Counted from the first letter of the stretch, positions 6,550 through 58,520 are shown. The stretch is DNA of 64,000 nucleotides from Patescibacteria group bacterium (GCA_038064915.1 JBBTSB010000009.1:20773-84772), one strand, 5' to 3'. A program made the numbers and translations. Notes: a model not told the origin generated them from the letters alone.

Positions 6550-7175
6550 TACCTTCCTACTATAACTCTAAAAAGAAAATCAATCAAGGGCATGAGAAAT
6601 TTTGAGAGAAACAAGACGAAAAATATGAAAATAAAGATGCCGTAGCGCACGAGGAAGTATTTTACCTCCACCCATCGTTCGGGAAGGAACGTGAGCAAAA
6701 GCCAGTGACCATCAAGAGGTTGGATGGGCACCAAATTGAACACCGCCAGCAATAAATTTATCTGAACAACAAAATCCAAAAAATCCCTGGCGACCGGATT
6801 GCCGGCAATACCGGGAGCAAAACGCAATACCATGCCGAATAGTACAGCAAGGAGAATATTCGAAAGCGGGCCGGCAATGGCTACTTTTGCGGGACCGTAT
6901 TTCTGATCGTTGAGATTGAGGGGGTTATATGGAACGGGTTTTGCATAGCCGAACACAAAGGTGCCCAGGCTGGCTACCAAGGTCATGAGGGGCAAGAGTA
7001 ACGATCCAAACAGATCGAGATGCTTGATGGGATTTAGGGTAAGGCGACCGGCATATTTTGCCGTTTGATCCCCCATACTTTGCGCCATCAATCCATGGGA
7101 AATTTCGTGTAAGATAACGGAATACAAAAAAGCTACGATCTTGAGGATAACCATAGTCCTTGTAAAATACCACAA
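6549..7175 (-). CDS. Peptidase M50 (site-2 protease family) membrane metalloprotease
   Basis: HEISHG (HExxH) within a polytopic membrane protein. One-nucleotide overlap with the rpsL start. Confidence 0.6.
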
Positions 7176-7197
7176 GATACCCTATAATGCCACCACT

Positions 7198-7383
7198 ATG
7201 GCAACACGATGTCCGCGATGCGGCAAAAAACCCATGATGGCTACCAAACGCAAGCTCTTGCGCGGCCACTATAACCCTGTCAATCGATATCGAAAATATC
7301 CGAATTTGCAGTGGGCGCTGGTCGCCGGCAAACGCACCATGATCTGCACAAGTTGTATCAAAACACTAGCAAAAACTGTCTAA
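7198..7383 (+). CDS. rpmB: 50S ribosomal protein L28 (zinc-ribbon form)
   Basis: MATRCPRCGKKP...NLQW...ICTSCIKT matches the L28 pattern with CxxC...CxxC. The upstream extension back to 7141 is rejected. Confidence 0.7.
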   Translation: MATRCPRCGKKPMMATKRKLLRGHYNPVNRYRKYPNLQWALVAGKRTMICTSCIKTLAKTV

Positions 7384-7391
7384 AGCGAAGG

Positions 7392-7462
7392 CGGGCCGTC
7401 GTATAATGGTAGTACGCGAGGCTGGGGGTCTTGCAGCGGGAGTCCGATTCTCCCCGGCCCGA
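7392..7462 (+). tRNA. tRNA-Pro (anticodon GGG)
   Basis: Hand-folded cloverleaf: acceptor CGGGCCG/CGGCCCG with the C1:G72 pair typical of bacterial tRNA-Pro, D-arm GTAT-AATGGTA-GTAC, anticodon loop CTGGGGG, T-arm GGGAG-TCCGATT-CTCCC. The T-loop TCC is non-canonical. No CCA is encoded. Confidence 0.7.
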
Positions 7463-7466
7463 CAAA

Positions 7467-8468
7467 TTAGAACCCTACAAGTTCCGGTTCGTTTTCAAGC
7501 ATGATGCCGGTTTTTTGGTAGACAATGTCGCGTGCTTTTTTGAAAAGAGTCAGCACGTCATCGGCGGTGGCGTTGTTGAAATTGATGATATTGATCACTT
7601 GGAGTTCTGAAAGTTTTGCACCGCCTACGGTCAAACCTTTGAGATCGCAAACTTTGTCGAGAAGATAACCGGCGGGGACTTTAACCCCCTCTGTTTCCCC
7701 CTTACCATAAGGGGGAAGGGGGGTTCGAAATCCAGGAGCACCAGCAGGAAGCTTCGCGTACTGCTCTTCCGTAATAATCGGATTCTTGAAAAAACTTCCC
7801 GCGCTCCAGTATTCGCTTGGATCCTGGCCTTTTGATTTACGAATCGCAATCACCTGATCGCGCATTTCTTGCAACGTACCCGGTTTCAATCCATATGTGG
7901 TATTCGGTTCCCCATTTTTTGAAAGCTTGAGCGTAAGTCCCAAAACCACATATCTGCCTTTTTGAACATTAAAAATACTCTTCCGGTATCCAAATTTGCA
8001 TTCGTCATTGGAAATTGAAAATTGAGAATTGGAAATTGTGTCATAAACGTCTACTGACGTTATGACACTGCGTGCCTCCTGGCCGTACGCACCCACATTC
8101 TGTATTGCCAATCCTGCCACATCGCCAGGTACAAACGACAAATTCTCCGTTCCCCATAGCCCGGCGTCGACTATTCTCTGTGCGCACTCATCCCAGTTTT
8201 CTCCGGCCGCGATGCTCACCGTCTCACCGTCAATCGCAAAGCCTTTGAGCTTTGGATGGATCACCAGCCCATCAAAGCCTTTATCGCTGACAAGCATATT
8301 CGATCCCCCGCCCAAAATTAATACGGGAAGGTTTTTTTCTTGAGCAAAAGAAACTGCTTCTCGCAGTTCCTCTATGTTTTCTATTTCAGTATAAAAAGCT
8401 GCCGGGCCTCCGATGTGAAACGTCGTGAGTTCAAAAAAGGAGACCTTCGTCGATACGTGCATAGTCAT
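7467..8468 (-). CDS. murB: UDP-N-acetylenolpyruvoylglucosamine reductase MurB
   Basis: FAD-binding domain (NLPVLILGGGSNMLVSD) and MurB C-terminal domain. Start placed at MTMHV, which has an AAGGA RBS. Overlaps the ndk 3' end. Confidence 0.85.
   Translation of the reverse strand: MTMHVSTKVSFFELTTFHIGGPAAFYTEIENIEELREAVSFAQEKNLPVLILGGGSNMLVSDKGFDGLVIHPKLKGFAIDGETVSIAAGENWDECAQRIVDAGLWGTENLSFVPGDVAGLAIQNVGAYGQEARSVITSVDVYDTISNSQFSISNDECKFGYRKSIFNVQKGRYVVLGLTLKLSKNGEPNTTYGLKPGTLQEMRDQVIAIRKSKGQDPSEYWSAGSFFKNPIITEEQYAKLPAGAPGFRTPLPPYGKGETEGVKVPAGYLLDKVCDLKGLTVGGAKLSELQVINIINFNNATADDVLTLFKKARDIVYQKTGIMLENEPELVGF
7696..7714. repeat. Perfect hairpin CCCCCTTA-CCA-TAAGGGGG inside the murB coding sequence; partial copy of the intergenic double-hairpin repeat
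   Basis: Sequence similarity extends to ...TAAGGGGGAAGGGGGGTTCGA versus the 14397-14425 copy ...TAAGGGGGATTCGAGGGGGTT. Encodes PLPPYGKGE in MurB. Confidence 0.5.
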
Positions 8469-12754: not shown

Positions 12755-13066
12755 TTAAACTTTCTTAAATACCTCCTTTACCTTCACAAACCTTCCCTCA
12801 TGTTCCGGTGCGGCTTCGACAAGATCCATCGGATTCCCATCCCACCACGGCACGGCTTCGTCTTTCCGAAAAACATCTTCAAGTCCCGTGACCTGCGCCG
12901 TCGGCTCCACGCCTTCGGTGTTCACCTCTTTGAGTTTTTCCACGTACGTCAAAATCTGCCCAAGCTCCTTGGTCATTTTTTCTTTTTGTGCATCATCAAA
13001 CTCCAACCTCGCCAATTTGGCAATGTGTTCAACTTGTTCTTTGGTGATAGTAGACATTAAGTCCAA
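12755..13066 (-). CDS. gatC: Glutamyl-tRNA(Gln) amidotransferase subunit C
   Basis: GatC-like sequence (ITKEQVEHIAKLARLEFDDAQ); located upstream of gatA. Confidence 0.85.
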   Translation of the reverse strand: MDLMSTITKEQVEHIAKLARLEFDDAQKEKMTKELGQILTYVEKLKEVNTEGVEPTAQVTGLEDVFRKDEAVPWWDGNPMDLVEAAPEHEGRFVKVKEVFKKV

Positions 13067-13121
13067 TCTAGCACAAAAAAAGTTAGCATGCTATATTCGC
13101 AATACTCTGGGAGGTGGCGCA

Positions 13122-13301
13122 ATGGAAATTCTAAGAATCTGTCCGCTTCACAATGTGGCATTTGATAAGTTCTGTTCAAAGTGCTACCTACGGGACCCCC
13201 GCTGCCCTCAGTGCGGGAGTTCCAACTTTGGAAGTGAAGACGAGGGGCTTGTGATCAAGTGGACCTGCTACGATTGCAGGCACACCTGGACCGAGCAATA
13301 G
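13122..13301 (+). CDS. Small Cys-rich zinc-ribbon protein (59 aa), PRCP-motif family, paralog A
   Basis: RBS GGAGGTGG 5 nt before the ATG. Sequence MEILRICPLHNV...CSKC...DPRCPQCG...WTCYDCRHTW. GC-rich coding sequence. Followed by a conserved hairpin. Confidence 0.5.
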   Translation: MEILRICPLHNVAFDKFCSKCYLRDPRCPQCGSSNFGSEDEGLVIKWTCYDCRHTWTEQ

Positions 13302-13323
13302 CTCCTCCCGCCCTCGCGGACGG

Positions 13324-13376
13324 CAGCCCTCGCGCATTGCGCTTGGAGCTCGCGTCGCGGGGGCTGTTGTTTTTAT
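13324..13376 (+). terminator. Structured hairpin repeat copy 1: 11 bp stem CAGCCCTCGCG/CGCGGGGGCTG, conserved 21 nt loop, then a T-run
   Basis: About 90% identical over roughly 80 bp to 14273-14350, including the stop-codon context TAGCTCC and the loop CATTGCGCTTGGAGCTCGCGT. Confidence 0.6.
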
Positions 13377-13437
13377 TGAATGCAATTGGATTGTAACGAT
13401 CACCACACCCACCATATCCTTAGTTCTACATTCCAGA

Positions 13438-13460
13438 CCGGCCGTGTCAGAATATAGAAT
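13438..13460. repeat. Inverted repeat left arm CCGGCCGTGTCAGAATATAGAAT abutting the stop codon of the PaaX-like gene
   Basis: 21/23 match to the reverse complement of 14000-14022. Confidence 0.7.
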
Positions 13461-13999
13461 CACGAAAGTTTATATTTTTTCTCAAATTTTTTATTGAGCT
13501 CGTCTCCCAACGTAGGAACAACAATCAGATGCACAGAAGAGCGGAGCATGAGAATATCAACAAGCTCACTGATTTCTTTATCGCAAACATGAGGAGTAAT
13601 AAAGACACTCTGTTGCAATTTGGTACAATCCCACTCTTTGAGTTTATCACGAAAAAGCTTACGCGCATTCCTTCTTTTTTCAGGAATATCGAATATAACG
13701 ATACGCCATTGGTGGTCCCATCGTTTTCCCGATGGATCAAATGAAAGCTCCTGCAGTCGATAGTAATCAATGCGCGCACTTCCCTTTTTGGTTATATGGA
13801 TGCCATTTTGTTTCTGTTGTATAAATCCATCCCGCTCAAGACGCTTGAGTGCTTGATTGATTTCCCATTCCCGATAACCTGGGCTCGATCGCATCATTTT
13901 GTTGGAAAGTGAATTACGACTAAAAGAGACTTCCATGATATACATCAACTCTCCTAAAGCTAGGAAAATATTTTTCACAATATTTTGTCCTTTTCCCAT
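13460..13999 (-). CDS. PaaX-like transcriptional regulator (winged helix plus PaaX_C / Cas2-fold-like C-terminal domain)
   Basis: N-terminal wHTH-like segment (EWEINQALKRLERDGFIQQKQNGIHITKKG). C-terminal W-DHQW-RIVIFDIPEKRRNARKLFRDKL...QQSVFITP matches the PaaX_C pattern. AT-rich, unlike the flanking small genes. Confidence 0.55.
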   Translation of the reverse strand: MGKGQNIVKNIFLALGELMYIMEVSFSRNSLSNKMMRSSPGYREWEINQALKRLERDGFIQQKQNGIHITKKGSARIDYYRLQELSFDPSGKRWDHQWRIVIFDIPEKRRNARKLFRDKLKEWDCTKLQQSVFITPHVCDKEISELVDILMLRSSVHLIVVPTLGDELNKKFEKKYKLS

Positions 14000-14022
14000 A
14001 TTCTATATTCTAGCACGGCCGG
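14000..14022. repeat. Inverted repeat right arm ATTCTATATTCTAGCACGGCCGG abutting the ATG of the PaaX-like gene
   Basis: Reverse complement matches 13438-13460. Contains the -10-like TAGAAT/TATAGAAT immediately upstream of the ATG, so a leaderless transcript is possible. Confidence 0.7.
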
Positions 14023-14093
14023 TTCCAAATATATAACTACGTTTTGTTCACAATAAACTCTCTTTCTCTTAGGATTTTGGCGAGGAGGTCATC

Positions 14094-14273
14094 ATGAAAG
14101 ATGATCGAGAAACCTGGCCTCGATGTCCCTATGTGGGACTACCCGGAGGTGAGTGGTGCGACGGGCACACGTCGGATGGACTCTGCCCACCGGGATGCTC
14201 CGAGCATGTCGCCAATGTTCGGGATGAGAGGGAGAAGCGCCTCCATGAGGCTCTCACTCCGGATTTTCAGTAG
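14094..14273 (+). CDS. Small Cys-rich protein (59 aa), PRCP-motif family, paralog B
   Basis: RBS GAGGAGG 6 nt before the ATG. Sequence MKDDRETWPRCPYVGLPGGEWCDGH...GLCPPGCSEH. Hand-translated; it is below the ORF-track size cutoff. The 14101 frame in the ORF track runs through the terminator repeat and is rejected. Confidence 0.45.
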   Translation: MKDDRETWPRCPYVGLPGGEWCDGHTSDGLCPPGCSEHVANVRDEREKRLHEALTPDFQ

Positions 14274-14288
14274 CTCCCGCCCTTGCGG

Positions 14289-14347
14289 ACAGACAGCCCT
14301 CGCGCATTGCGCTTGGAGCTCGCGTCGCGAGGGCTGTCTGTTTTTAT
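14289..14347 (+). terminator. Structured hairpin repeat copy 2: 16 bp stem ACAGACAGCCCTCGCG/CGCGAGGGCTGTCTGT, same conserved loop, then TTTTTAT
   Basis: Near-identical to copy 1. Confidence 0.6.
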
Positions 14348-14364
14348 ACAACAACTCACCCTAA

Positions 14365-14416
14365 CCCTCTCTTATAGATAAGAGAGGGAATTTCTTCCCC
14401 CTTATCTATAAGGGGG
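14365..14416. repeat. Double-hairpin palindromic repeat, copy 1 (CCCTCTCTTATAGATAAGAGAGGG ... CCCCCTTATCTATAAGGGGG)
   Basis: Two perfect hairpins. Reverse complement of the copy at 57795-57852. Sits at the 3' end of ligA. Confidence 0.8.
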
Positions 14417-14427
14417 ATTCGAGGGGG

Positions 14428-16374
14428 TTACTGAACGAGTTTCAGAAATTCTCCTTCATTCAATATCTTCACCCCCAGTTTCTTTGCCTTCTCGGCTTTA
14501 CTTCCCGGTTCACTGCCGACCACCACATAGCTCGTTTCTTTGGAGACCGATGACGACGCATCGCCACCGTGGGAACGGACGAGTTCTTCTGCCGCTTCTC
14601 GACTCATGCTTTCCATCGATCCCGTAAATACAAACGTCTTGCCTTTGAGTTTATTGGACTTTTGTGTAGATTCCACCGGTAAAATCGCAATATGTTTTTT
14701 TAATTTAGTAATGAGCCTGTCGTGTGCAAACCAATCAAAAATACTTTTGGCTACGACTCCCCCAATGTCTTTAATAGCGGCGAGCTCTTCGAGCGAAGCC
14801 GACCCGAGCTTCTCGAGGGTTCCGAATTTTCGCGCGAGATCGACAGCTGTTTCTGATCCCACATGCGGAATTCCCAATCCATAAATAAAGCGATCCAGGG
14901 CTATTTTTTTGTGAGACTGAATTGAAGCAACTGCGTTTTCTGCCGATTTGTCGGCAAAGCGATCGAGGTTGAAAAAATCTTCTTTGGTGAGCGTAAACAA
15001 ATCCGCTGCGTCGCGCACGAGTCCAGCATCCATCAGCGCGTCTATGATCTTTGGCCCGATGCCGTCCATGTCAAACGCGCCTTTGGAAATAAAATGATAC
15101 ATGCCTTCACGTTTGATGGCGGGGCAATTTTTGTTGACGCATTTATACGCAACCTCCCCTTCAACACGCTTGATTGTTTCATTGCACGCAGGACACTTCC
15201 TGGGAAATTGAAAATTCTTTTCCTTGCCCGTGCGCAGTTCGGTGATGGCTTTTTTGATATCAGGAATAACATCCCCTGCACGGCCGACAACAACCGTGTC
15301 ACCGATTTTGACATCAAGACGTTTTATTTCATCTTCGTTGTGAAGCGTCGCGCGGGAAACCGTCGTGCCGCCGATTTCCACAGGCTCCAGTACTGCGACG
15401 GGGGTAAGCGTTCCCGTGCGGCCGACGCTGACAATGATGTCGTTGAGCTTGGTCGTCGCCTCTCGCGGTGAAAATTTGTACGCGATCGCGCCCCGCGGCG
15501 TCTTGCCGATGACGCCCAGCTTGCGGAACATCGCCTCATCATTGATTTGCACGACAATTCCGTCTATTTCGTAGTTCAGTGATTCGCGATGTTTCTCCCA
15601 GTAATCCCGAAATTCCTGTACTTCCTTGAGATCTTTGCAAAATTTATTGTGCGGATTTGTTTTAAAGCCCAGATCATGCAAAATCCTGTGCTCGTCTTCA
15701 TGCGTCTTTTGTCCCAGATCCGTAATGAGCGAATATGCGTATGAATCCATCTTGCGTGAAGCGGTTATTTTTGGATCAAGCTGACGAATGGAGCCAGCGG
15801 CAAGATTGCGTGGATTTGCATACCCTTCTGCTTTAAATTCTTCAAATTCTTTTTTAGTAATAAAAACTTCGCCCCTGAGCACAATCTCCTCCTCATGGTC
15901 AATGGTCAATGGTACAGCGTCAATGGTTCTGAGATTTTGAGTCACATTTTCGCCTACGGTACCATCTCCCCTTGTTGCTCCTATTTTTAATATCCCTTTT
16001 TCATAGACTAATTCAATCGCAAGACCATCCAACTTCAGCTCACAGTAGTATCCCGAATCCCCCGCCTTGGGGTCGATGCGCCTAATACGTTCAAGCCATT
16101 CGCCCAAATCGTCCTCATTAAATGCATCTAAAAGCGAGAGCATGCGAGTTGGATGCGTGAATTTTTCAAACTTATCAAGTGGGGTGCCACCCACGCGTTG
16201 CGTTGGCGAGTCAGGTGTGACAAGCTTCGGAAACTGCGTTTCCAAGTCAAAAAGCTCTTTTTTGAGGCTATCTTCAACGCTTTCTTCTACGAGTGGTTTG
16301 TCCAAAACCAGCCGGTGGTAGCGGTATTTATTGATAAGATCGCGAAGCTTTTTTATTCGTAAATTTGGATCCAT
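14428..16374 (-). CDS. ligA: NAD-dependent DNA ligase LigA
   Basis: Adenylation KxDG motif (CELKLDGLAIEL), OB fold, Zn finger, HhH and a C-terminal BRCT domain. Confidence 0.9.
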   Translation of the reverse strand: MDPNLRIKKLRDLINKYRYHRLVLDKPLVEESVEDSLKKELFDLETQFPKLVTPDSPTQRVGGTPLDKFEKFTHPTRMLSLLDAFNEDDLGEWLERIRRIDPKAGDSGYYCELKLDGLAIELVYEKGILKIGATRGDGTVGENVTQNLRTIDAVPLTIDHEEEIVLRGEVFITKKEFEEFKAEGYANPRNLAAGSIRQLDPKITASRKMDSYAYSLITDLGQKTHEDEHRILHDLGFKTNPHNKFCKDLKEVQEFRDYWEKHRESLNYEIDGIVVQINDEAMFRKLGVIGKTPRGAIAYKFSPREATTKLNDIIVSVGRTGTLTPVAVLEPVEIGGTTVSRATLHNEDEIKRLDVKIGDTVVVGRAGDVIPDIKKAITELRTGKEKNFQFPRKCPACNETIKRVEGEVAYKCVNKNCPAIKREGMYHFISKGAFDMDGIGPKIIDALMDAGLVRDAADLFTLTKEDFFNLDRFADKSAENAVASIQSHKKIALDRFIYGLGIPHVGSETAVDLARKFGTLEKLGSASLEELAAIKDIGGVVAKSIFDWFAHDRLITKLKKHIAILPVESTQKSNKLKGKTFVFTGSMESMSREAAEELVRSHGGDASSSVSKETSYVVVGSEPGSKAEKAKKLGVKILNEGEFLKLVQ

Positions 16375-29732: not shown

Positions 29733-30548
29733 AGACATCAATTTCACCACATTCTCAAGCGCTACCGCACAGACGAGCGGTCCCACCCCACCGGGAACAG
29801 GCGTAATGAGCGAGGCTTTTTTGCTGACGTTCTCAAAGTCCACATCACCAGAAATCTTGCCCTCCGCACGACCATATCCAAAATCCATCACGATCGCCCC
29901 TTCTTTCACCATGTCGGCTTTGATCATGCCAACATTGCCAGTTCCGGTAATGAGAATATCTGCTTGGCAACACAGTTCTGCCTGGTTGGCATCGCCGCGA
30001 CTGATGACCGTGACACTTGCTTTCATACTAGCAAGCATGTGTGCGGCCGGTCGGCCCACAAGCAATCCGTAGCCAAAAACCGCAACTCGCTTCCCTTCAA
30101 CATCAATTTTGTGATAATCGAGGATTGCTTTTACCGCGGCCGGACAGGGCGGCATCACTGATGATCTTCCAACAAAAAACGCCCCTTGGGCTTTTTGTGA
30201 AAGTACATCAGGATCTTTTTCTAGAGGAATTGCATTAAGCACCGCCTGCTGGTTGATATGCTTAGGAAGTGGCAATTCGAGAATGATACCTGAAACTTTT
30301 TTCTGTTTTGCAATCTTTACAATTTCGGCTCTCAACTTTTTCGTAGTGATATCTGAAGAAAATTCGTACCATTTGTATTCAAAGCCGGCCTTCTTGGCCA
30401 TCTCTTCTTTGATTTCCAAAAAACGTCGCATCTCTTCCTGCGCGCCAACCAACACCGCCGCCACTAGCGGTTTAGTCTTGAGCTTAGCCACTTCCCCAGC
30501 CACCCGCTCCATGATTTCCGCCGCAATTTTTTTACCGTCGATGATCAC
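29724..30548 (-). CDS. folD: Bifunctional methylenetetrahydrofolate dehydrogenase/cyclohydrolase FolD
   Basis: FolD catalytic and NAD(P)-binding regions. GTG start overlaps the stop of the upstream inserted gene (GTGA). Confidence 0.9.
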   Translation of the reverse strand: MIIDGKKIAAEIMERVAGEVAKLKTKPLVAAVLVGAQEEMRRFLEIKEEMAKKAGFEYKWYEFSSDITTKKLRAEIVKIAKQKKVSGIILELPLPKHINQQAVLNAIPLEKDPDVLSQKAQGAFFVGRSSVMPPCPAAVKAILDYHKIDVEGKRVAVFGYGLLVGRPAAHMLASMKASVTVISRGDANQAELCCQADILITGTGNVGMIKADMVKEGAIVMDFGYGRAEGKISGDVDFENVSKKASLITPVPGGVGPLVCAVALENVVKLMSSA

Positions 30549-30550
30549 TT
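30517..30550. repeat. 33 bp direct repeat copy A (covers the folD start)
   Basis: TCCGCCGCAATTTTTTTACCGTCGATGATCACT; 31/33 match to 31221-31253. Confidence 0.75.
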
Positions 30551-30973
30551 CTTTTTTGGTGTTAGCTCAATTTCTTCCTTGAGTAAATCAAACTTTACGA
30601 CAAAAAGATCAAAAAAGCCACGCTGACCAAGAACTCCAAAGGATCTTTTGCCCAAATGATAAGAAAAAGCAACTTGGGTTTTGTATTTCCAACCACCAAT
30701 GAGAAGCGTAACTTCGTGGATAAAAGCATCAGCCGCACTTGATTCTTGTATTCCTCGAAAGTTTAATTTTCTTCCTTTGGATATGTCCAAATTCAAGGCC
30801 TCCCCTATTCCGGCATCAAAAATACAAAAATCTGCTCCCGAATCGATAAGTGCGTCGTATTCGAAAGGCTCACCGCCAACAGTTAATCCAATGGGGATAA
30901 CGGGTTTCAGAATGGCATCACCAAAAAAATCTGATTGTTCTGAAAGATGAAATTTGAGATATTCAAATTTCAT
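30545..30973 (-). CDS. Retropepsin-like aspartic protease
   Basis: ALIDSGAD (D-S/T-G-A) active-site motif; about 140 aa, single-lobe size. Confidence 0.6.
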   Translation of the reverse strand: MKFEYLKFHLSEQSDFFGDAILKPVIPIGLTVGGEPFEYDALIDSGADFCIFDAGIGEALNLDISKGRKLNFRGIQESSAADAFIHEVTLLIGGWKYKTQVAFSYHLGKRSFGVLGQRGFFDLFVVKFDLLKEEIELTPKKK

Positions 30974-31210: not shown

Positions 31211-31252
31211 TCAAAGCAACTCCGCCGCTATTTTTTTGCCGTCGATGATCAC
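31211..31252 (-). pseudogene. Duplicated folD 5' fragment (GTG-ATC-ATC-GAC-GGC-AAA-AAA-ATA-GCG-GCG-GAG... giving MIIDGKKIAAELL*)
   Basis: Encodes the first 11 residues of FolD and then stops. Overlaps the glyA stop (TAGTG). Confidence 0.6.
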
Positions 31253-31253
31253 T
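31221..31253. repeat. 33 bp direct repeat copy B (downstream of glyA)
   Basis: TCCGCCGCTATTTTTTTGCCGTCGATGATCACT. Confidence 0.75.
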
Positions 31254-32400
31254 ATTTTTTCTTCGTCAGCACCTCGTGAATCTTGTGCGCAAGTTTGATC
31301 ATGTCTTTTTCTTTCATGCCGCGCGTGGTTGCTGCTGGGGTACCCAGACGTATGCCGTTGGGATTCCAGGGTTTTGCGGGATCATGGGGAATGGTGTTTT
31401 TGTTGACCACGAGGCCATGCTTTTCGAGCAAATTTGCCGCATCCCCTCCCGTGATGCCCTGCGGGCGCAGATCTACCAACATGAGATGATTGTCGGTACC
31501 ACCAGAGACAATCGTATAGCCAAGTTTTTTGAGCTCGCCGGCAAGGGCCTTGGCATTTTTGACAATCTGTTTTGCGTAGGCTTTGAAACTCGGCTTGAGT
31601 GCTTCTTCGAGTGCCACGCCAATTCCTGCAATCGTATGAAGGTGCGGACCCCCCTGCATGCCGGGGAATAGCGCCTTATTGATGGCGTCGATGAGCTCGG
31701 CACGCGCGATGATAATGGCGCCACGCGGACCACGAAGCGTCTTGTGAGTCGTAAACGTCACAATATCCGCATACGGAAAGGGGCTCGGATGAGCGCCGCC
31801 TACAATGAGTCCGGCAATGTGCGAAACATCCGCCATGAGTCTGGCTCCCACCGCATCGGCTATTTCACGAAACTTTTTGAAATCCACGGTTCTCGGGTAG
31901 GCCGTAAATCCACATACAATCAGCTTGGGCTGAAATTCCTTTGCCGTAGCCATGATGGCATCATAGTCGAGGTAACCGTCTTCTTTTACGCCATAGTGTT
32001 TGAACTGAAAGAGCTTGCTCGTAAGACTCACCGGACTACCATGTGTGAGATGACCGCCTTCTGAAAGTGACATCGCAAGGATCTTGTCCCCCATCTGCAG
32101 TGTGCCCGTGTAGACGGCGAGATTTGCAGGACTGCCAGAGTGAGACTGTACATTTGCCGCCCATTCTTTGGGATTGAGTTTGAAAGCTTTTAGCGCGAGA
32201 CGACGCGCTTCATCTTCAACATGATCGACGATACTATTGCCGTTGTAGTAGCGCTTGTGGGGATAACCCTCGGCATATTTGTTCATCAGCTCCGAGCCCA
32301 CCGCAGCCATGACCGCTTTTGATGCGTAGTTTTCGGAAGGGATGAGTGAGAGCGACTTTTTCTGGCGCGCAACCTCTTTTTTTATTAAATCTTTGATCAT
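31252..32400 (-). CDS. glyA: Serine hydroxymethyltransferase GlyA
   Basis: PLP-binding region (TTHKTLRGPRG) and SHMT signature. Confidence 0.9.
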   Translation of the reverse strand: MIKDLIKKEVARQKKSLSLIPSENYASKAVMAAVGSELMNKYAEGYPHKRYYNGNSIVDHVEDEARRLALKAFKLNPKEWAANVQSHSGSPANLAVYTGTLQMGDKILAMSLSEGGHLTHGSPVSLTSKLFQFKHYGVKEDGYLDYDAIMATAKEFQPKLIVCGFTAYPRTVDFKKFREIADAVGARLMADVSHIAGLIVGGAHPSPFPYADIVTFTTHKTLRGPRGAIIIARAELIDAINKALFPGMQGGPHLHTIAGIGVALEEALKPSFKAYAKQIVKNAKALAGELKKLGYTIVSGGTDNHLMLVDLRPQGITGGDAANLLEKHGLVVNKNTIPHDPAKPWNPNGIRLGTPAATTRGMKEKDMIKLAHKIHEVLTKKK

Positions 32401-50285: not shown

Positions 50286-51160
50286 AGTCTATTGAGATAG
50301 CTCACCGCTGACAGCAGTGCCGTGACTCCCTGCCCTGCTGCGATTGGGTTTTGCTTATATTGCATATTAGTGACATCACCTGCGGCATACAATCCAGGAA
50401 TATTGGTCTCGCAACTTTGATTGATAACAATCTCACCAAAATTGTTTTTTTCTACGCCCTCGGGCGCCATGGCCGAATTGGCGATCATGCCAATGTGGAC
50501 AAAAATCCCATCCACCGTTATTTCTCTATCATTATACCGCAAACCGGTAACAAATTCATTACCAATGATCTCTTTGGTCAAGGCTGAATATATGATCTCA
50601 ACATTTGGCTTATTCTGCAAGTTATCAATCAACACAGCATCACCCTTGAACTGTGGGTTCTTGTTGATCACGTACACTTTTTTACACAAATCAGCCAACA
50701 TCAAAGCGGATTCCAGCGCTGAATTTCCACCCCCAATGGTTGCCACGACTTTACCAGCAAAAATGGGACCGTCGCACGTCGTGCAGTAGCTCACGCCTTT
50801 GTTCCGAAATTCTTTCTCACCGGGAATATTGAGCTCCCGCGGATGCGCACCGGTGGCGATGATGACTGTTTTTGTTTCATAACCGTCCACCAAAAAAGAC
50901 CCATTCTTCTTCTCGATCTTTTTTATCTCAATGTCCTCATCGATCGAGACTCCTAGAAACTCTAAATGCTCGCGGAATTTTTGAGCGAGCTCAATGCCAT
51001 TGGTTTCCGGAATGCCCGGCCAGTTGCCGATTTCCCCGGATGTAGCAAGCTCACCATTGAAATCCTTGGTAACAACTTTAAAATTCAGCCCTCGCCGAGC
51101 GGCATAAATAGCGGCGGCAGTACCGGCGGTAGAACCGCCGATGATTACAAGGTCGTACAT
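50282..51160 (-). CDS. trxB: Thioredoxin-disulfide reductase
   Basis: FAD motif GGSTAGTAAAIYAAR, redox Cys pair CTTC and NADPH motif. Confidence 0.85.
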   Translation of the reverse strand: MYDLVIIGGSTAGTAAAIYAARRGLNFKVVTKDFNGELATSGEIGNWPGIPETNGIELAQKFREHLEFLGVSIDEDIEIKKIEKKNGSFLVDGYETKTVIIATGAHPRELNIPGEKEFRNKGVSYCTTCDGPIFAGKVVATIGGGNSALESALMLADLCKKVYVINKNPQFKGDAVLIDNLQNKPNVEIIYSALTKEIIGNEFVTGLRYNDREITVDGIFVHIGMIANSAMAPEGVEKNNFGEIVINQSCETNIPGLYAAGDVTNMQYKQNPIAAGQGVTALLSAVSYLNRL

Positions 51161-51210
51161 AGTAAATGACTAATAATTAATTACTAATGATTAATCAATA
51201 ACCAAATGGC

Positions 51211-51582
51211 TCAATGGTCATTAATTTTATTTTCCCGGCTTGATTTAATAATCTTAGCAAAGATCAAATTCAACTCTTTTGCTTCCTGCCATAACTTTCG
51301 AGCTGATTCTTTGCTCTCGGGAACAGAAGCGCCAATCATATGAAACCAATACATGCTTTCACGAACCTCTTTCTTGCAAATCCCGATTTTGTGGACAAAA
51401 TCTTTCTTCGATTCCGCATTATTGGCCTCACAATAGTTTGCGCCAACGCTGGTACCAGATCGGACCAGCTGACTGATCAACGGTCTGGTGATACTATTTT
51501 CGGCTATTTTCCTGCAAAAATCAAGGACCATGATACCAAACTTTGCGGTACGTTCTTCGAGGTCAAATTTCTTATCGGTCAT
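51211..51582 (-). CDS. Four-helix-bundle protein (TIGR02436-type, rRNA IVS-protein family)
   Basis: GTSVGANYCEA...SKKDF...EVRESMYWF pattern. Confidence 0.65.
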   Translation of the reverse strand: MTDKKFDLEERTAKFGIMVLDFCRKIAENSITRPLISQLVRSGTSVGANYCEANNAESKKDFVHKIGICKKEVRESMYWFHMIGASVPESKESARKLWQEAKELNLIFAKIIKSSRENKINDH

Positions 51583-52106
51583 AGCTGAAATTGGTCAACG
51601 ATTTTTTGAGCAACCTCATTGGGTTGTAACAAATTGGTATCCAACGTCAAGCTATCCGTATGCTGCACTTTTGCAAATAAATTAAACTTGTCCATAAGTT
51701 CCTTGAGTTTTTCTTGGGTCTTTACTTTGTGGAATTTTTCTCTGCTTGGTTCATTCACACGCTTCATCAATACCTCTTCGGGTGCTATGAGCTGCACAAA
51801 GTATATCGTTCCCCGGTTGCGTTTGATAATATCGGTCAGTGAATCAATCCAAGGCTGGTCACTAATATCATAGACGTAGGTAAATATGACACCAGGAATC
51901 TCTGCTTTCGCAGCTGTATCGATGATATCTTCTCGAATCCTATTGACCAAAGGCGCACGAGCAGGATGTCCCCACTCAAAAAAGATGCCAATCATATCAC
52001 TGATAATATGATTGTGAAAGTTTTTGTAGCCAGTGAGTTTCTCAAGCTCATTTGCTACCGTAAGCTTTCCAACAGCAGGTGGTCCATATAGAAAGATGAG
52101 ATTCAT
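51579..52106 (-). CDS. P-loop NTPase, small kinase-like protein
   Basis: Walker A YGPPAVGKLT; about 175 aa. Confidence 0.55.
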   Translation of the reverse strand: MNLIFLYGPPAVGKLTVANELEKLTGYKNFHNHIISDMIGIFFEWGHPARAPLVNRIREDIIDTAAKAEIPGVIFTYVYDISDQPWIDSLTDIIKRNRGTIYFVQLIAPEEVLMKRVNEPSREKFHKVKTQEKLKELMDKFNLFAKVQHTDSLTLDTNLLQPNEVAQKIVDQFQL

Positions 52107-52151
52107 TTGCTCATTGATTAGTCATTAGTAATTCGTTATTAGTCATTTTCT

Positions 52152-53447
52152 ATGTTCTATTGTATCATGATTTGTATGCGAAAACATCTTGCGCTGATTG
52201 TCATTTTACTGGCTAGTATCGCTGTCCATTTTGCATTTTTCGGACATCCCCGACAAACCGTTTTTGATGAAGTCCACTTTGGCAAATTTGTTTCCGGTTA
52301 CTTCACGCACGAGTATTTTTTTGACATCCATCCCCCGCTGGGCAAGCTGATCATTTCCGGAGCAGCAAAGATGGCGGGGTTTGAGCCGGGCTTTAGTTTT
52401 GGACAAATTGGCGAGCAGTTTCCCAATGCAACGTACAAGGCGATGCGGCTACTTCCCAGCATCGCTGGCACATTGCTTCCTGTAGTGATTTTCTTACTGC
52501 TCCTTGAGCTGAAGTTTTCGAAAGGCGCTGCCATGACTGCCGGTTTGCTCATCGCTTTTGATAATGCTCTTCTGGTGCAATCCCGTTTTATGCTTCTGGA
52601 CTCGTTTTTGTTGCTCTTGGGATTTCTCTCATGGTGGTTGTATGCAAAATTCCGCAATTCTCCCACTACTCACTATTCACTATTCACTTCTGCTGCCATC
52701 TTTGCCGGCGCCGCAGCATCAGTAAAGTGGACGGGGATAACGTTTCTTGCGGTAATCGGCATTCTTGAGCTTATTCGTGTCATTCGAGAGCGAACTCGTT
52801 TTCTATCACTAGTGGTTTTGATTTTTGTGCCATTTTTGGTCTACTACGCACTATTCACTATCCACTTCTCCCTCCTATCACAGCCAGGTCCCGGTGATGC
52901 GTTCATGTCGCAGGATTTTCGCGACGGAAAACTCTCTTCGTTCGAAAAATTTAATGAACTCAATAGCGAGATGTACCGGGCTAACGCACGATTGACGGCG
53001 ACCCATCCCTACTCGAGCAAGTGGTACCAATGGCCATTCATGGTAAAGGGTATTTACTATTGGAACTCCGCCAATGAAAAAATTTATCTTTTGGGAAATC
53101 CCATTATTTGGTGGGCTTCGACGTTTGGCATTTTATATATCCTTATCAACAGCGTTACTGCGAGAAATACGATGTATTGGCTTTTGAGCGGTGCCTATCT
53201 GCTGAATATACTTCCATTCATCGGAATAGATAGGGCAATGTTCCTCTATCACTACTTTACAGGACTCATCATCGCTATTATTGCCCTTGTGTATTTTGTC
53301 GATTCATTGAAAAACCGCAATAAAATCTTTGCGGTTTTGCTGGCGGCAAGTTTTGTGGTTTTCCTCTACTTCGCTCCCCTCTCATATGGACTACAACTTT
53401 CTGAAAAAGCCTTCCAGCATCGGATGTGGTTGGAGAGTTGGAAGTAA
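52152..53447 (+). CDS. GT39-family (PMT/ArnT-like) polyprenyl-phosphate-dependent glycosyltransferase
   Basis: N-terminal DE motif region (VFDEVHFGKF...FDIHPPLGKL) and a polytopic membrane protein. Confidence 0.7.
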   Translation: MFYCIMICMRKHLALIVILLASIAVHFAFFGHPRQTVFDEVHFGKFVSGYFTHEYFFDIHPPLGKLIISGAAKMAGFEPGFSFGQIGEQFPNATYKAMRLLPSIAGTLLPVVIFLLLLELKFSKGAAMTAGLLIAFDNALLVQSRFMLLDSFLLLLGFLSWWLYAKFRNSPTTHYSLFTSAAIFAGAAASVKWTGITFLAVIGILELIRVIRERTRFLSLVVLIFVPFLVYYALFTIHFSLLSQPGPGDAFMSQDFRDGKLSSFEKFNELNSEMYRANARLTATHPYSSKWYQWPFMVKGIYYWNSANEKIYLLGNPIIWWASTFGILYILINSVTARNTMYWLLSGAYLLNILPFIGIDRAMFLYHYFTGLIIAIIALVYFVDSLKNRNKIFAVLLAASFVVFLYFAPLSYGLQLSEKAFQHRMWLESWK

Positions 53448-57740: not shown

Positions 57741-57794
57741 GGGGAGAGGATATCATACTAAACAACTCCCTCCAACTTCAACAACCCCCTCGAT

Positions 57795-57852
57795 CCCCCT
57801 TATAGATAAGGGGGAAGAAATTTCTGCTCCCTCTCTTATCTATAAGAGAGGG
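57795..57852. repeat. Double-hairpin palindromic repeat, copy 2 (CCCCCTTATAGATAAGGGGG ... CCCTCTCTTATCTATAAGAGAGGG)
   Basis: Reverse complement of the 14365-14416 copy with a 6 nt insertion (TCTGCT). Lies between the FolT-like gene and folC. Confidence 0.8.
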
Positions 57853-58520
57853 TTGGGGTGAGATAGTGCGTATTTCTGATTCACGAGTGGCAAGACTCTC
57901 GGCACCTTTTTCGCCACGAGTGCCAACACATTGTTCATGACAAGATACGAGACGGCGATACCGAGAGCAAAAATCGCTCGCTCTTTTATGACTATAGGAA
58001 TAAGACCAGACCAGACGGAAGCCGGCAAGGGATTAAAGATCGCCCAGAGTGCGCCTCCCACGGCATGGGCGGTAAAGGTCGCGCCAAGCGCACGGGCGAG
58101 AAGCCAACGATCCTGCAGAAAGTACGCGACAATAGGGATCAACCAAAGCAAAGCGAAGTACCAGGCTTGACGGCTTTCCGGCATGATCAAAAAAGCTATT
58201 ATTGCCGCAACCGGAACGATGACATTGAAGAGGCTTTTGCGGGAAAAATACAAGGCGGCTGCAAGTGGAGTGATGAGACGAATAGCCATTACCGCATCAA
58301 ACGAACTTACGCCTTTTACAGCAAGGTTAATCAATTCCATTCCCGCGACAGCCACGACTCCCCAGAGCGATCCCAAAAATCCCGTGGCTATTGGCGCAAA
58401 CAGATCAAAAAGCGTAAACGCCGACCGTGAACCTTCTAGCTTTGCGACCGGAACCTGCAATGCTACAAAACCGAGAACCGCAAACAATACGATGAACAGA
58501 ATTTTTTGTTTATTTGACAC
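57840..58520 (-). CDS. Membrane protein, candidate ECF-transporter S component (folate-family context)
   Basis: 5-6 transmembrane helices. Located between folC and a DHFR-family gene. The functional assignment is inferred from context only. Confidence 0.4.
   Translation of the reverse strand: MSNKQKILFIVLFAVLGFVALQVPVAKLEGSRSAFTLFDLFAPIATGFLGSLWGVVAVAGMELINLAVKGVSSFDAVMAIRLITPLAAALYFSRKSLFNVIVPVAAIIAFLIMPESRQAWYFALLWLIPIVAYFLQDRWLLARALGATFTAHAVGGALWAIFNPLPASVWSGLIPIVIKERAIFALGIAVSYLVMNNVLALVAKKVPRVLPLVNQKYALSHPNPLL

Follow-up and report, generated by a model that had tools for sequence, protein, structure and literature searches.

The region described here lies on a 64,000-nucleotide stretch of DNA from a Patescibacteria group bacterium (GCA_038064915.1, JBBTSB010000009.1, positions 20,773–84,772; hereafter the window), in which a 1.36-kb segment separates the housekeeping genes gatC and ligA. 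The order on the minus strand is ligA, the segment, gatC and gatA, and both bracketing genes are strongly matched by Pfam profiles (Table 1). An earlier note on this DNA described the segment as an accessory island with two small open reading frames (ORF A and ORF B), each followed by a near-identical hairpin repeat, a PaaX-like gene of Cas2 fold between inverted repeats at its center, and a double hairpin at the ligA edge. All of these features are present at the coordinates it gave: the two ORFs are each 59 codons long with a Shine-Dalgarno (SD) sequence 5–6 nt upstream, the PaaX-like gene sits between the arms (IR-L and IR-R) of a 40-nt inverted repeat (IR), and the double hairpin at 14365–14416 adjoins ligA. 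The note's observation is thus confirmed in part and its interpretation supported in part; the locus is real, but two headline readings, that the ORFs are paralogous and that the repeats constitute a loop-specific RNA element, are wrong. The ~75-nt repeat instead forms the terminator part of an expression cassette that occurs in more than one copy, and the note had missed the promoter at the opposite end. The segment as a whole is, with reasonable probability, a lineage-specific accessory module composed of an autoregulated PaaX-like repressor and two small-gene cassettes resembling the morons of phage genomes.

Table 1. Features of the ligA–gatC segment and corresponding elements in related loci. 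Positions are those of the window unless a related locus is named.
Feature	Position	Strand	Remarks
gatC, flanking housekeeping gene	12755-13066	-	PF02686, E=5.6e-20
Cassette A upstream region, decayed promoter copy	13089-13116	+	Identified by alignment with L089; SD GGGAGGTG at 13109-13116
Cargo ORF A, 59 aa	13122-13301	+	Three CxxC pairs and CxxH; C-terminal zinc ribbon
3' module A	13299-13377	+	From stop codon TAG; stem 13324-13334/13356-13366 (11 bp), 21-nt loop, T-run
IR-L, operator-like	13421-13460	.	Directly adjoins the PaaX-like stop codon
PaaX-like gene, 179 aa	13460-13999	-	Winged helix-turn-helix (wHTH) and central Cas2-like domain; PF20803, E=2.4e-20 (residues 92-165)
IR-R, operator-like	14000-14039	.	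Contains the predicted promoter of the PaaX-like gene (TTGGAA-17-TAGAAT)
Cassette B predicted promoter and SD	14047-14089	+	-35 TTCACA, 17-nt spacer ATAAACTCTCTTTCTCT, -10 TAGGAT (14070-14075), SD GAGGAGGT (14082-14089)
Cargo ORF B, 59 aa	14094-14273	+	Cys/His in N-terminal half; predicted helix, residues 33-54
3' module B	14271-14347	+	From stop codon TAG; 16-bp stem 14289-14304/14326-14341, 21-nt loop, T-run
Double-palindrome element	14355-14433	.	Overlaps the ligA stop codon; fold z=-3.5
ligA, flanking housekeeping gene	14428-16374	-	DNA_ligase_aden, E=1.2e-80
(CT)n spacer runs	14053-14069; L005 6761/7869/8945; L085 1039; L086 579; L088 845; L089 80/1060		
PaaX-like genes of the second family	L005 7960-8601; L085 1126-1752; L086 653-1261; L088 1095-1742		

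The same layout is present in six species, namely that of the window and five others represented by the loci L005, L085, L086, L088 and L089. In each, the order is gatC, cassette, PaaX-like gene, cassette and ligA, with the PaaX-like gene on the ligA and gatC strand and the cassettes on the opposite strand. L085, L086 and L088 were located through a metagenome scan for the cassette promoter motif, and L089 through its PaaX-like protein, an orthologue 75% identical to that of the window. L005 is the nearest relative of the window (80% identity in ligA and 86% in gatA), and its module has three cassettes together with an IS200-like Y1 transposase gene. Cassettes beside a PaaX-like gene at ligA–gatC are thus seen in five other species; the earlier note's picture of small zinc-ribbon genes paired with a PaaX-like regulator holds for the recurrence of the module, but for the zinc ribbons only in part.

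All cassettes are built to one plan. The 5′ end has a −35 hexamer TTGACA, a spacer of the form ATAAA(CT)n, a −10 hexamer TAGGAT followed by TTG, a variable stretch of nucleotides, AAGGAGG and a start codon; the 3′ end has the ORF, a stop codon (usually TAG) and, 10–30 nt later, the GC-rich strong hairpin with which every cassette ends. There are several characteristic features. First, the cassettes are alike only in the core promoter (from −35 to about +3) and in the 3′ module from the stop codon onwards, and the 5′ untranslated region (UTR) and ORF that lie in between cannot be aligned from one cassette to another. Second, the core promoter is almost identical in nine cassettes, cassette B of the window and eight in the five other genomes. 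Third, the motif occurs just once in the window, where cassette B scores 9/12 against the promoter consensus, and the metagenome-wide scan for the promoter module returned solely ligA/PaaX/gatC junctions and one chance match, such that the motif appears to be specific to this locus and not a general promoter type. Finally, no origin of the promoter in phage, plasmid or viral DNA was found.

Most of the spacer consists of a (CT)5–7 run, and spacer lengths differ by CT units. The spacer is 15 nt in L088, 17 nt in cassette B of the window, the second cassette of L005, L085, L086 and the gatC-side cassette of L089, and 19 nt in the first and third cassettes of L005 and the ligA-side cassette of L089. 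Steps of 2 nt in a spacer with a 17-nt optimum are the signature of slippage-controlled promoters, and phase-variable promoters with repeats in the spacer include those of Haemophilus hif, with (TA)n, and of Neisseria porA and opc, with homopolymer tracts. The cassettes share with these a simple-sequence spacer that takes lengths of 15, 17 and 19 nt, and the (CT)n run could similarly act as a slippage-based expression switch, with expression predicted to depend on its length. They depart from them in that the variation is seen between cassettes and species only, and the window tract is interrupted (CTCTCTTTCTCT) and identical in four assemblies of the window species.

At the other end of the cassettes, the two window copies of the repeat (13305–13376 and 14274–14347) share 93% identity across 74 nt, including an exact core of 36 nt, where no such match would be expected by chance, and no further copy of the ~75-nt repeat is present in the 64 kb. 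The DNA likeness between cassettes A and B begins exactly at the stop codons. Module B has a predicted folding energy of −43.1 kcal/mol (z=−5.2), and the stem is maintained across species: among the six copies that three genomes provide, pairing holds for 92% of stem cells, compared with 43–56% when the partner strand is slid, and three of the 11 stem pairs are altered on both sides, including a T-A / T.G / C-G series. The L085, L086 and L088 hairpins have further compensatory changes (GATGG/CCATC versus GGTGG/CCACC). In the window the GC-rich stems lie downstream of a stop codon and lead directly into T-runs (TTGTTTTTAT and TTTTTAT), and a T-run is also present in L005 and L089. The position of the T-run immediately after the stem identifies the hairpins of these three loci as putative intrinsic-type terminators, albeit with unusually long and partly self-paired loops, and it is the 21-nt loop that accounts for a consensus scan not reporting the full hairpin as a terminator.

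The cargo between promoter and hairpin is coding. In eight of eight cassettes tested, the frame linked to the SD remains open until just before the hairpin, with a joint shuffle P of ~2e-7 (single ORFs are weakly non-random, P 0.06–0.26). The L085 and L086 cargo genes are orthologues with 68% identity, a ratio of nonsynonymous to synonymous substitution (dN/dS) of 0.27, and 16/13/35 differences by codon position. Third-position GC content (GC3) exceeds that of second positions in all eight small cargo ORFs and in a cupin gene (0.63 versus 0.45 in ORF A); at 0.55–0.78 it is also above that of ligA, gatC and gatA in the window (0.44–0.54), and above that of the PaaX-like gene of the same genome, except in L088, whose PaaX-like gene has a GC3 of 0.59. 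Overall GC content is 0.51–0.62 in the cargo and 0.39–0.49 in its neighbors. The earlier note's description of ORFs A and B as GC-rich is accurate relative to the PaaX-like gene (0.51 and 0.58 versus 0.39, with 0.47 for the genome) but not in absolute terms.

Apart from the L085/L086 pair, the cargo proteins are mutually non-homologous, and this extends to ORFs A and B. The proposed paralogy was examined and rejected: BLASTP gives E=0.95 with 6/23 identities, and the DNA aligns from the stop codon only. Nor does ORF A have DNA or BLASTP support for orthology with a 64-aa ORF of L089 with which it shares a slot and CxQCG...CY motifs. The small cargo ORFs have 53–83 codons, and the gatC-side slot of L085 is occupied by a 166-aa cupin (Cupin_7, E=3.5e-12, ChrR-type); L088 has a 72-aa ribbon-helix-helix (RHH) gene (RHH_3, E=4e-12) that is divergent from the PaaX-like gene. 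ORF A matches Pfam zinc ribbons below threshold (best E=4.9e-5), and in an AlphaFold2 model residues 31–59 form a three-stranded zinc ribbon with predicted local distance difference test (pLDDT) values of 83–88, for which Foldseek found generic zinc ribbons only. ORF B has no match in Pfam, PADLOC or NCBIfam, and is modeled as one helix at low confidence (mean pLDDT 61). The lack of relationship between cargoes reflects either replacement or divergence beyond recognition, and the same slots also contain RHH and cupin domains, which favors replacement. Our guess is that the cargo genes encode small regulators or inhibitors under rapid turnover.

The protein encoded between the cassettes has the N-terminal winged helix and Cas2-like central domain of PaaX, the repressor of the phenylacetate operon. 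We describe it as PaaX-like, not as PaaX, for three reasons. First, it lacks the PaaX C-terminal domain. Second, it scores 28.2 bits with the equivalog model TIGR02277, far under the cutoff of 264.55, and covers only positions 31–153 of the 279 in the model; the PaaX-like proteins at these loci are 179–215 aa in length, with PF20803 E-values of 2.4e-20 and 6.1e-22. Third, there are no paa genes among the locus neighbors. The Cas2 likeness is weak, with the Pfam CRISPR_Cas2 match (E=6.5e-6) below that of PaaX_M and a TIGR01573 (Cas2) score of 21.4 bits against a cutoff of 24.5. A search of solved structures with this protein gave nothing useful, no literature linking PaaX with Cas2 was found, and none of the top-ranked papers from a search on PaaX and the Candidate Phyla Radiation (CPR) mentions PaaX.

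The repeats flanking the window gene are 80% complementary overall and differ at two positions in the inner 23 nt, and no further arms are present in the 64 kb. On the gene strand, IR-R contains an extended −10 sequence TGCTAGAAT (14007–14015), followed after 7 nt (8 nt in L089) by the ATG at 13999, and this short distance suggests that the PaaX-like mRNA is leaderless. IR-L departs from IR-R at precisely the position that is the first of the −10 (TCAGAAT or CCAGAAT). In the window both arms have AGAATATAGAAT as their inner 12 nt, and in L089 both have AGAATGTATAAT; the arms have thus changed together. If the mRNA is leaderless then IR-R is not transcribed, and this makes RNA pairing less likely than a role at the DNA level in which the repeats are bound by the wHTH protein; and with IR-R ending 8 nt from the −35 hexamer of cassette B, the two divergent promoters could be under the control of a single site.

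A second PaaX-like family occupies the same position in L005, L085, L086 and L088, with proteins 23–28% identical to that of the window (about 25–35% for L005 in another comparison). Here L005, L085 and L088 have a different repeat with a palindromic core TCCATATGG (TTCCATATGGAA at the 3′ site); in L005 and L085 it is seen both at the start codon and within the 3′ end of the ORF, and in L088 at the 3′ site. At its start, L086 retains no more than a degenerate copy, CATATG. In this family the first and last approximately six codons are drawn from the same repeated DNA (ME(N/D)KK), and there is a ~25-aa hydrophobic insert ILKGVAITGMVAFAATSPYFG that the window protein does not have. Family membership is at odds with housekeeping similarity, in that the window is nearest to L005 by gatA and ligA yet shares its PaaX-like family with L089, and we take this to mean that the central gene has been exchanged or sorted between lineages.

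The favored reading brings these elements together as follows. The module would have become fixed at the ligA–gatC junction in a small Paceibacteria-type clade of the CPR. The truncated PaaX-like factor would be transcribed from its extended −10 promoter as a leaderless mRNA, and the protein would bind both operator-like repeats, thereby repressing its own transcription and that from the strong cassette promoter located 8 nt past IR-R; the repeat copy at the 3′ end may be a partner in looping or may block convergent transcription as a roadblock. On either side, and on the opposite strand, lies a putatively autonomous cassette in which a near-consensus sigma-70-type promoter and an SD precede a short GC-rich ORF and its hairpin. 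Promoter and hairpin are kept across cassettes and species, and the cargo between the 35-nt promoter and the hairpin is swapped for unrelated small genes, whose products are a zinc ribbon, further peptides with Cys residues, a cupin and an RHH protein. The parts are ordinary; what is unusual is that a single promoter/hairpin chassis serves unrelated cargo in different species, and that its spacer contains a repeat.

Phage morons are independent transcription units situated between conserved genes (PMC3594210), and the cassettes have much in common with them: a promoter and terminator of their own, small ORFs to which no function is assigned, a GC content unlike that of the neighbors, and a location between genes that in relatives lie next or almost next to each other, with the cassettes absent there. 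They differ in residing on a CPR chromosome between ligA and gatC, and not in a phage, with no phage or viral matches found, and in the reuse of promoter and hairpin with differing cargo in six species, paired around a regulator.

Several observations weigh against this interpretation. First, the promoters, the leaderless start and termination are predicted at the level of consensus matches, the binding of the PaaX-like protein to its flanking repeats is presumed, and it is unusual for a gene to have an operator at its 3′ end. Second, cassette A is without a canonical promoter: relative to L089 its −35 is mutated and a 27-nt deletion has taken out the CT run and the −10, and an extended −10 TGCTATATT (13089–13097) may be used in substitution. 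Third, loops of 21 nt are long for an intrinsic terminator, well outside the usual 3–8 nt, and the T-run is not shared by all orthologous copies; the L085, L086 and L088 hairpins are followed by CCCCC, and may be 3′ stabilizers or pause sites rather than terminators. Fourth, ORF A has no homologue in 5.8 G proteins, and an exhaustive HMMER search of 1.8 G representatives gave repetitive Cys-rich proteins only; ORF B is an orphan that retrieves only its own sequence from the 5.8 G proteins. Finally, gene callers skipped both ORFs on the 75.7-kb (L003/L091) and 9.1-kb (L004/L092) ENA contigs, with ORF B called only on two ~1-kb Logan contigs and ORF A in no assembly examined. What is called in the window is a 91-aa ORF on the minus strand (13188–13463), antisense to ORF A and crossing the terminator hairpin and IR-L, which is very likely spurious.

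A bolder version of the favored reading, which we regard as unlikely, makes the junction a slot for gene capture and expression, with a fixed and possibly phase-variable promoter and hairpin chassis that operates like an integron lacking an integrase, supervised by a swapped PaaX-like regulator with co-changing operators. As in integron cassettes, short unrelated ORFs are associated at one locus with imperfect palindromes that have kept stems and a variable center. The module nonetheless differs from integrons in that every cassette brings a promoter of its own, and in that the cassettes number only two or three and are interleaved with other genes. The genes up to about 10 kb on either side include no integrase or recombinase, and inspection of the hairpin ends showed no attC core sites (RYYYAAC / GTTRRRY).

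The window is part of a 75.7-kb contig from a Hainich groundwater assembly (0.1-µm fraction, ENA ERZ1292627), and by ligA similarity its nearest relatives are Paceibacteria/Yanofskybacteria-type CPR genomes; the host is an ultra-small groundwater bacterium. The neighbors of the locus are ligA and gatCA, type IV pilus genes and comEC. The earlier note regarded ligA and gatCA as normally adjacent, and the order ligA-gatC-gatA-(195-aa gene) is indeed kept in eight of the 12 CPR relatives with enough flanking sequence, but in none of the Clostridia loci fetched, and adjacency is thus a feature of the clade and no general rule. The proposal of an accessory island is well founded, with a gap that ranges from 80 nt to 2.6 kb and differing contents among relatives. 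In L010–L019 the junction is empty or otherwise filled: some relatives have almost nothing there and others have unrelated inserts, including an ABC transporter (L012), a membrane protein (L010), and single opposite-strand genes with their own promoters (L014 and L019). L016 (5503–5763, z=−12) and L011 (3027–3244, z=−4.1), which are without the module, have long foldback DNA in the gap, either MITE-like (resembling miniature inverted-repeat transposable elements) or structured RNA, with no match in Rfam. This variety of contents and gap sizes marks the junction as an insertion hot spot.

The module, or parts of it, could be mobile: either the IR-flanked PaaX-like gene could be transposable, or the hairpin cassettes could be moved in trans by an IS200-like Y1 (HUH) transposase; we think both rather improbable. 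The 40-nt terminal repeats are positioned exactly at the gene ends, the PaaX-like family conflicts with gatA and ligA similarity, the cargo GC is deviant, foldback MITE-like DNA is present at this junction in relatives, and in L005 a Y1_Tnp gene with identical flanking palindromes lies in the same junction. However, the element is single-copy in the window and always at the same syntenic site, there is no target-site duplication by inspection and no direct repeat outside the arms, and the second PaaX-like family has direct, not inverted, repeats. The window has no Y1 transposase, and the IR-flanked gene encodes a wHTH/Cas2-fold protein that is without relatives in phages or viral contigs and has one distant plasmid relative only. 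The L005 transposase (6810–7582; 228 aa, PF01797) has the palindrome GCTAACATCAAGGTTCGACCTTGATGTTAGC on both sides within the ligA–gatC module, and homologues of it are present in L008 and L013.

Also improbable, to a similar degree, is a conflict system, whether toxin-antitoxin-like, defensive or anti-defensive, with the Cas2-fold protein as nuclease or sensor and the small proteins as inhibitors or effectors. Loci of anti-CRISPR (Acr) and anti-CRISPR-associated (Aca) genes combine a conserved helix-turn-helix autorepressor with operators, in the form of inverted repeats, at a strong promoter from which small proteins of variable sequence are expressed. The module resembles them in its conserved regulator, the inverted repeats over a promoter, the near-consensus promoter and the hypervariable small orphan proteins, and the weak Cas2-family profile matches and the fast cargo turnover, which includes an RHH protein of a kind typical of antitoxins and a ChrR-type cupin, are in keeping with such a role. 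It differs in that its genes are divergent or convergent, on opposite strands and not in one operon, in being chromosomal with no phage or plasmid link, and in the wHTH/Cas2 fold of the regulator. Moreover, PADLOC gives weak Cas2 and wHTH matches only, and the best domain is the middle domain of PaaX regulators and not a catalytic Cas2. There are no cas genes in the gene list of the locus, and neither cas genes nor a CRISPR array were noticed elsewhere in the window, where no search aimed at them was made.

That the ~75-nt repeat is a sequence-specific structured RNA, either a 3′ UTR-derived small RNA or a protein-binding element with a functional 21-nt loop, now seems very unlikely. It has in its favor the 36-nt core identical in both window copies, a 3′ part of the loop and 3′ arm (GGCTCTCGTCGCGGGGGC) that are identical in the three L005 copies and similar in the window, and the capacity of AGCTCC at the stop codon to pair with GGAGCT in the loop. 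The argument from loop conservation put forward in the earlier note fails, however, since the loop is identical within the window because the whole repeat is 93% identical, and it is no better kept than the stems. Between species the loops differ, those of L089, L085, L086 and L088 being unrelated while the stems are kept, so that the covariation sought by the note is found in the stem without conservation of the loop. The T-run after the stem and the presence of only two copies in 64 kb likewise argue against this role, and Rfam 15 yields no match even with the limit relaxed to E<=10 (the best match in 12900–14600 is 18.9 bits against a gathering threshold of 48.5, and only tRNAs are found in the whole window).

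Finally, the view that the small ORFs are untranslated, and that the GC-rich opposite-strand transcripts act by antisense or interference on ligA-PaaX-gatCAB read-through, draws on the lack of homologues of ORFs A and B, the weak single-ORF shuffle values, the mere 55 nt between gatC and the ORF A start, and the lack of a T-run in the reverse complement of the hairpin, which makes read-through from the PaaX-like gene into gatC plausible, but has little chance of being correct given the correct SD spacing and stop codon just before the hairpin in all eight cassettes, the purifying selection on the L085/L086 pair, the zinc-ribbon motifs and confident fold of ORF A, and the clear RHH and cupin domains in the cargo.

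Other repeats in the window are separate from the module. The double hairpin that the earlier note included in it is a dispersed repeat (CCCTCTCTTATAGATAAGAGAGGG ... CCCCCTTATCTATAAGGGGG), with a 90% identical copy in opposite orientation at 57785–57862 and a partial third at 7682–7718, each copy at a gene end. It looks like an element of the repetitive extragenic palindrome (REP) or bacterial interspersed mosaic element (BIME) type and is not module-specific; it shares with these its recurrence always beside gene ends, and differs in that only three copies were seen and that the window has no gene for a REP-associated tyrosine transposase (RAYT). Elsewhere, a 52-nt AT-rich inverted repeat (88% complementary) at 51157–52155 surrounds two minus-strand genes, coding for a 123-aa protein like the four-helix-bundle ‘23S rRNA intervening sequence’ family and a 175-aa P-loop (GPPAVGK) protein, and is another IR-bracketed accessory insert. 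There is also a 40-nt direct repeat, 90% identical, at 30517–30556 and 31221–31260, 704 nt apart. In L010, a group I intron (RF00028, 60 bits) is situated at 7572–7837, ~4 kb downstream of ligA. All assemblies of the window species are collinear, with no 970-bp deletion between the direct repeats, no inversion between the IR arms and no empty junction. Two Logan contigs, L001 and L002 (1000 and 994 nt), correspond to window 13324–14323 and have both ends inside the 36-nt exact repeat; these ends are a break in the de Bruijn assembly graph at that repeat and no sign of a circle or excision.

The genomes of CPR/Patescibacteria are tiny and contain little DNA that is accessory or regulatory, and experimental genetics is almost absent for these bacteria. 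The locus pairs swapped small proteins with a kept strong promoter, which may switch by slippage, and with a dedicated regulator, and it is a tractable candidate for how episymbiont-like bacteria vary functions in host interaction or conflict. It also carries a lesson for annotation, in that ORF A was missed in all assemblies examined, ORF B was called on the two short Logan contigs only, and a spurious antisense ORF was called over ORF A. The promoter and terminator pair could become a native expression part for the genetics of these organisms.

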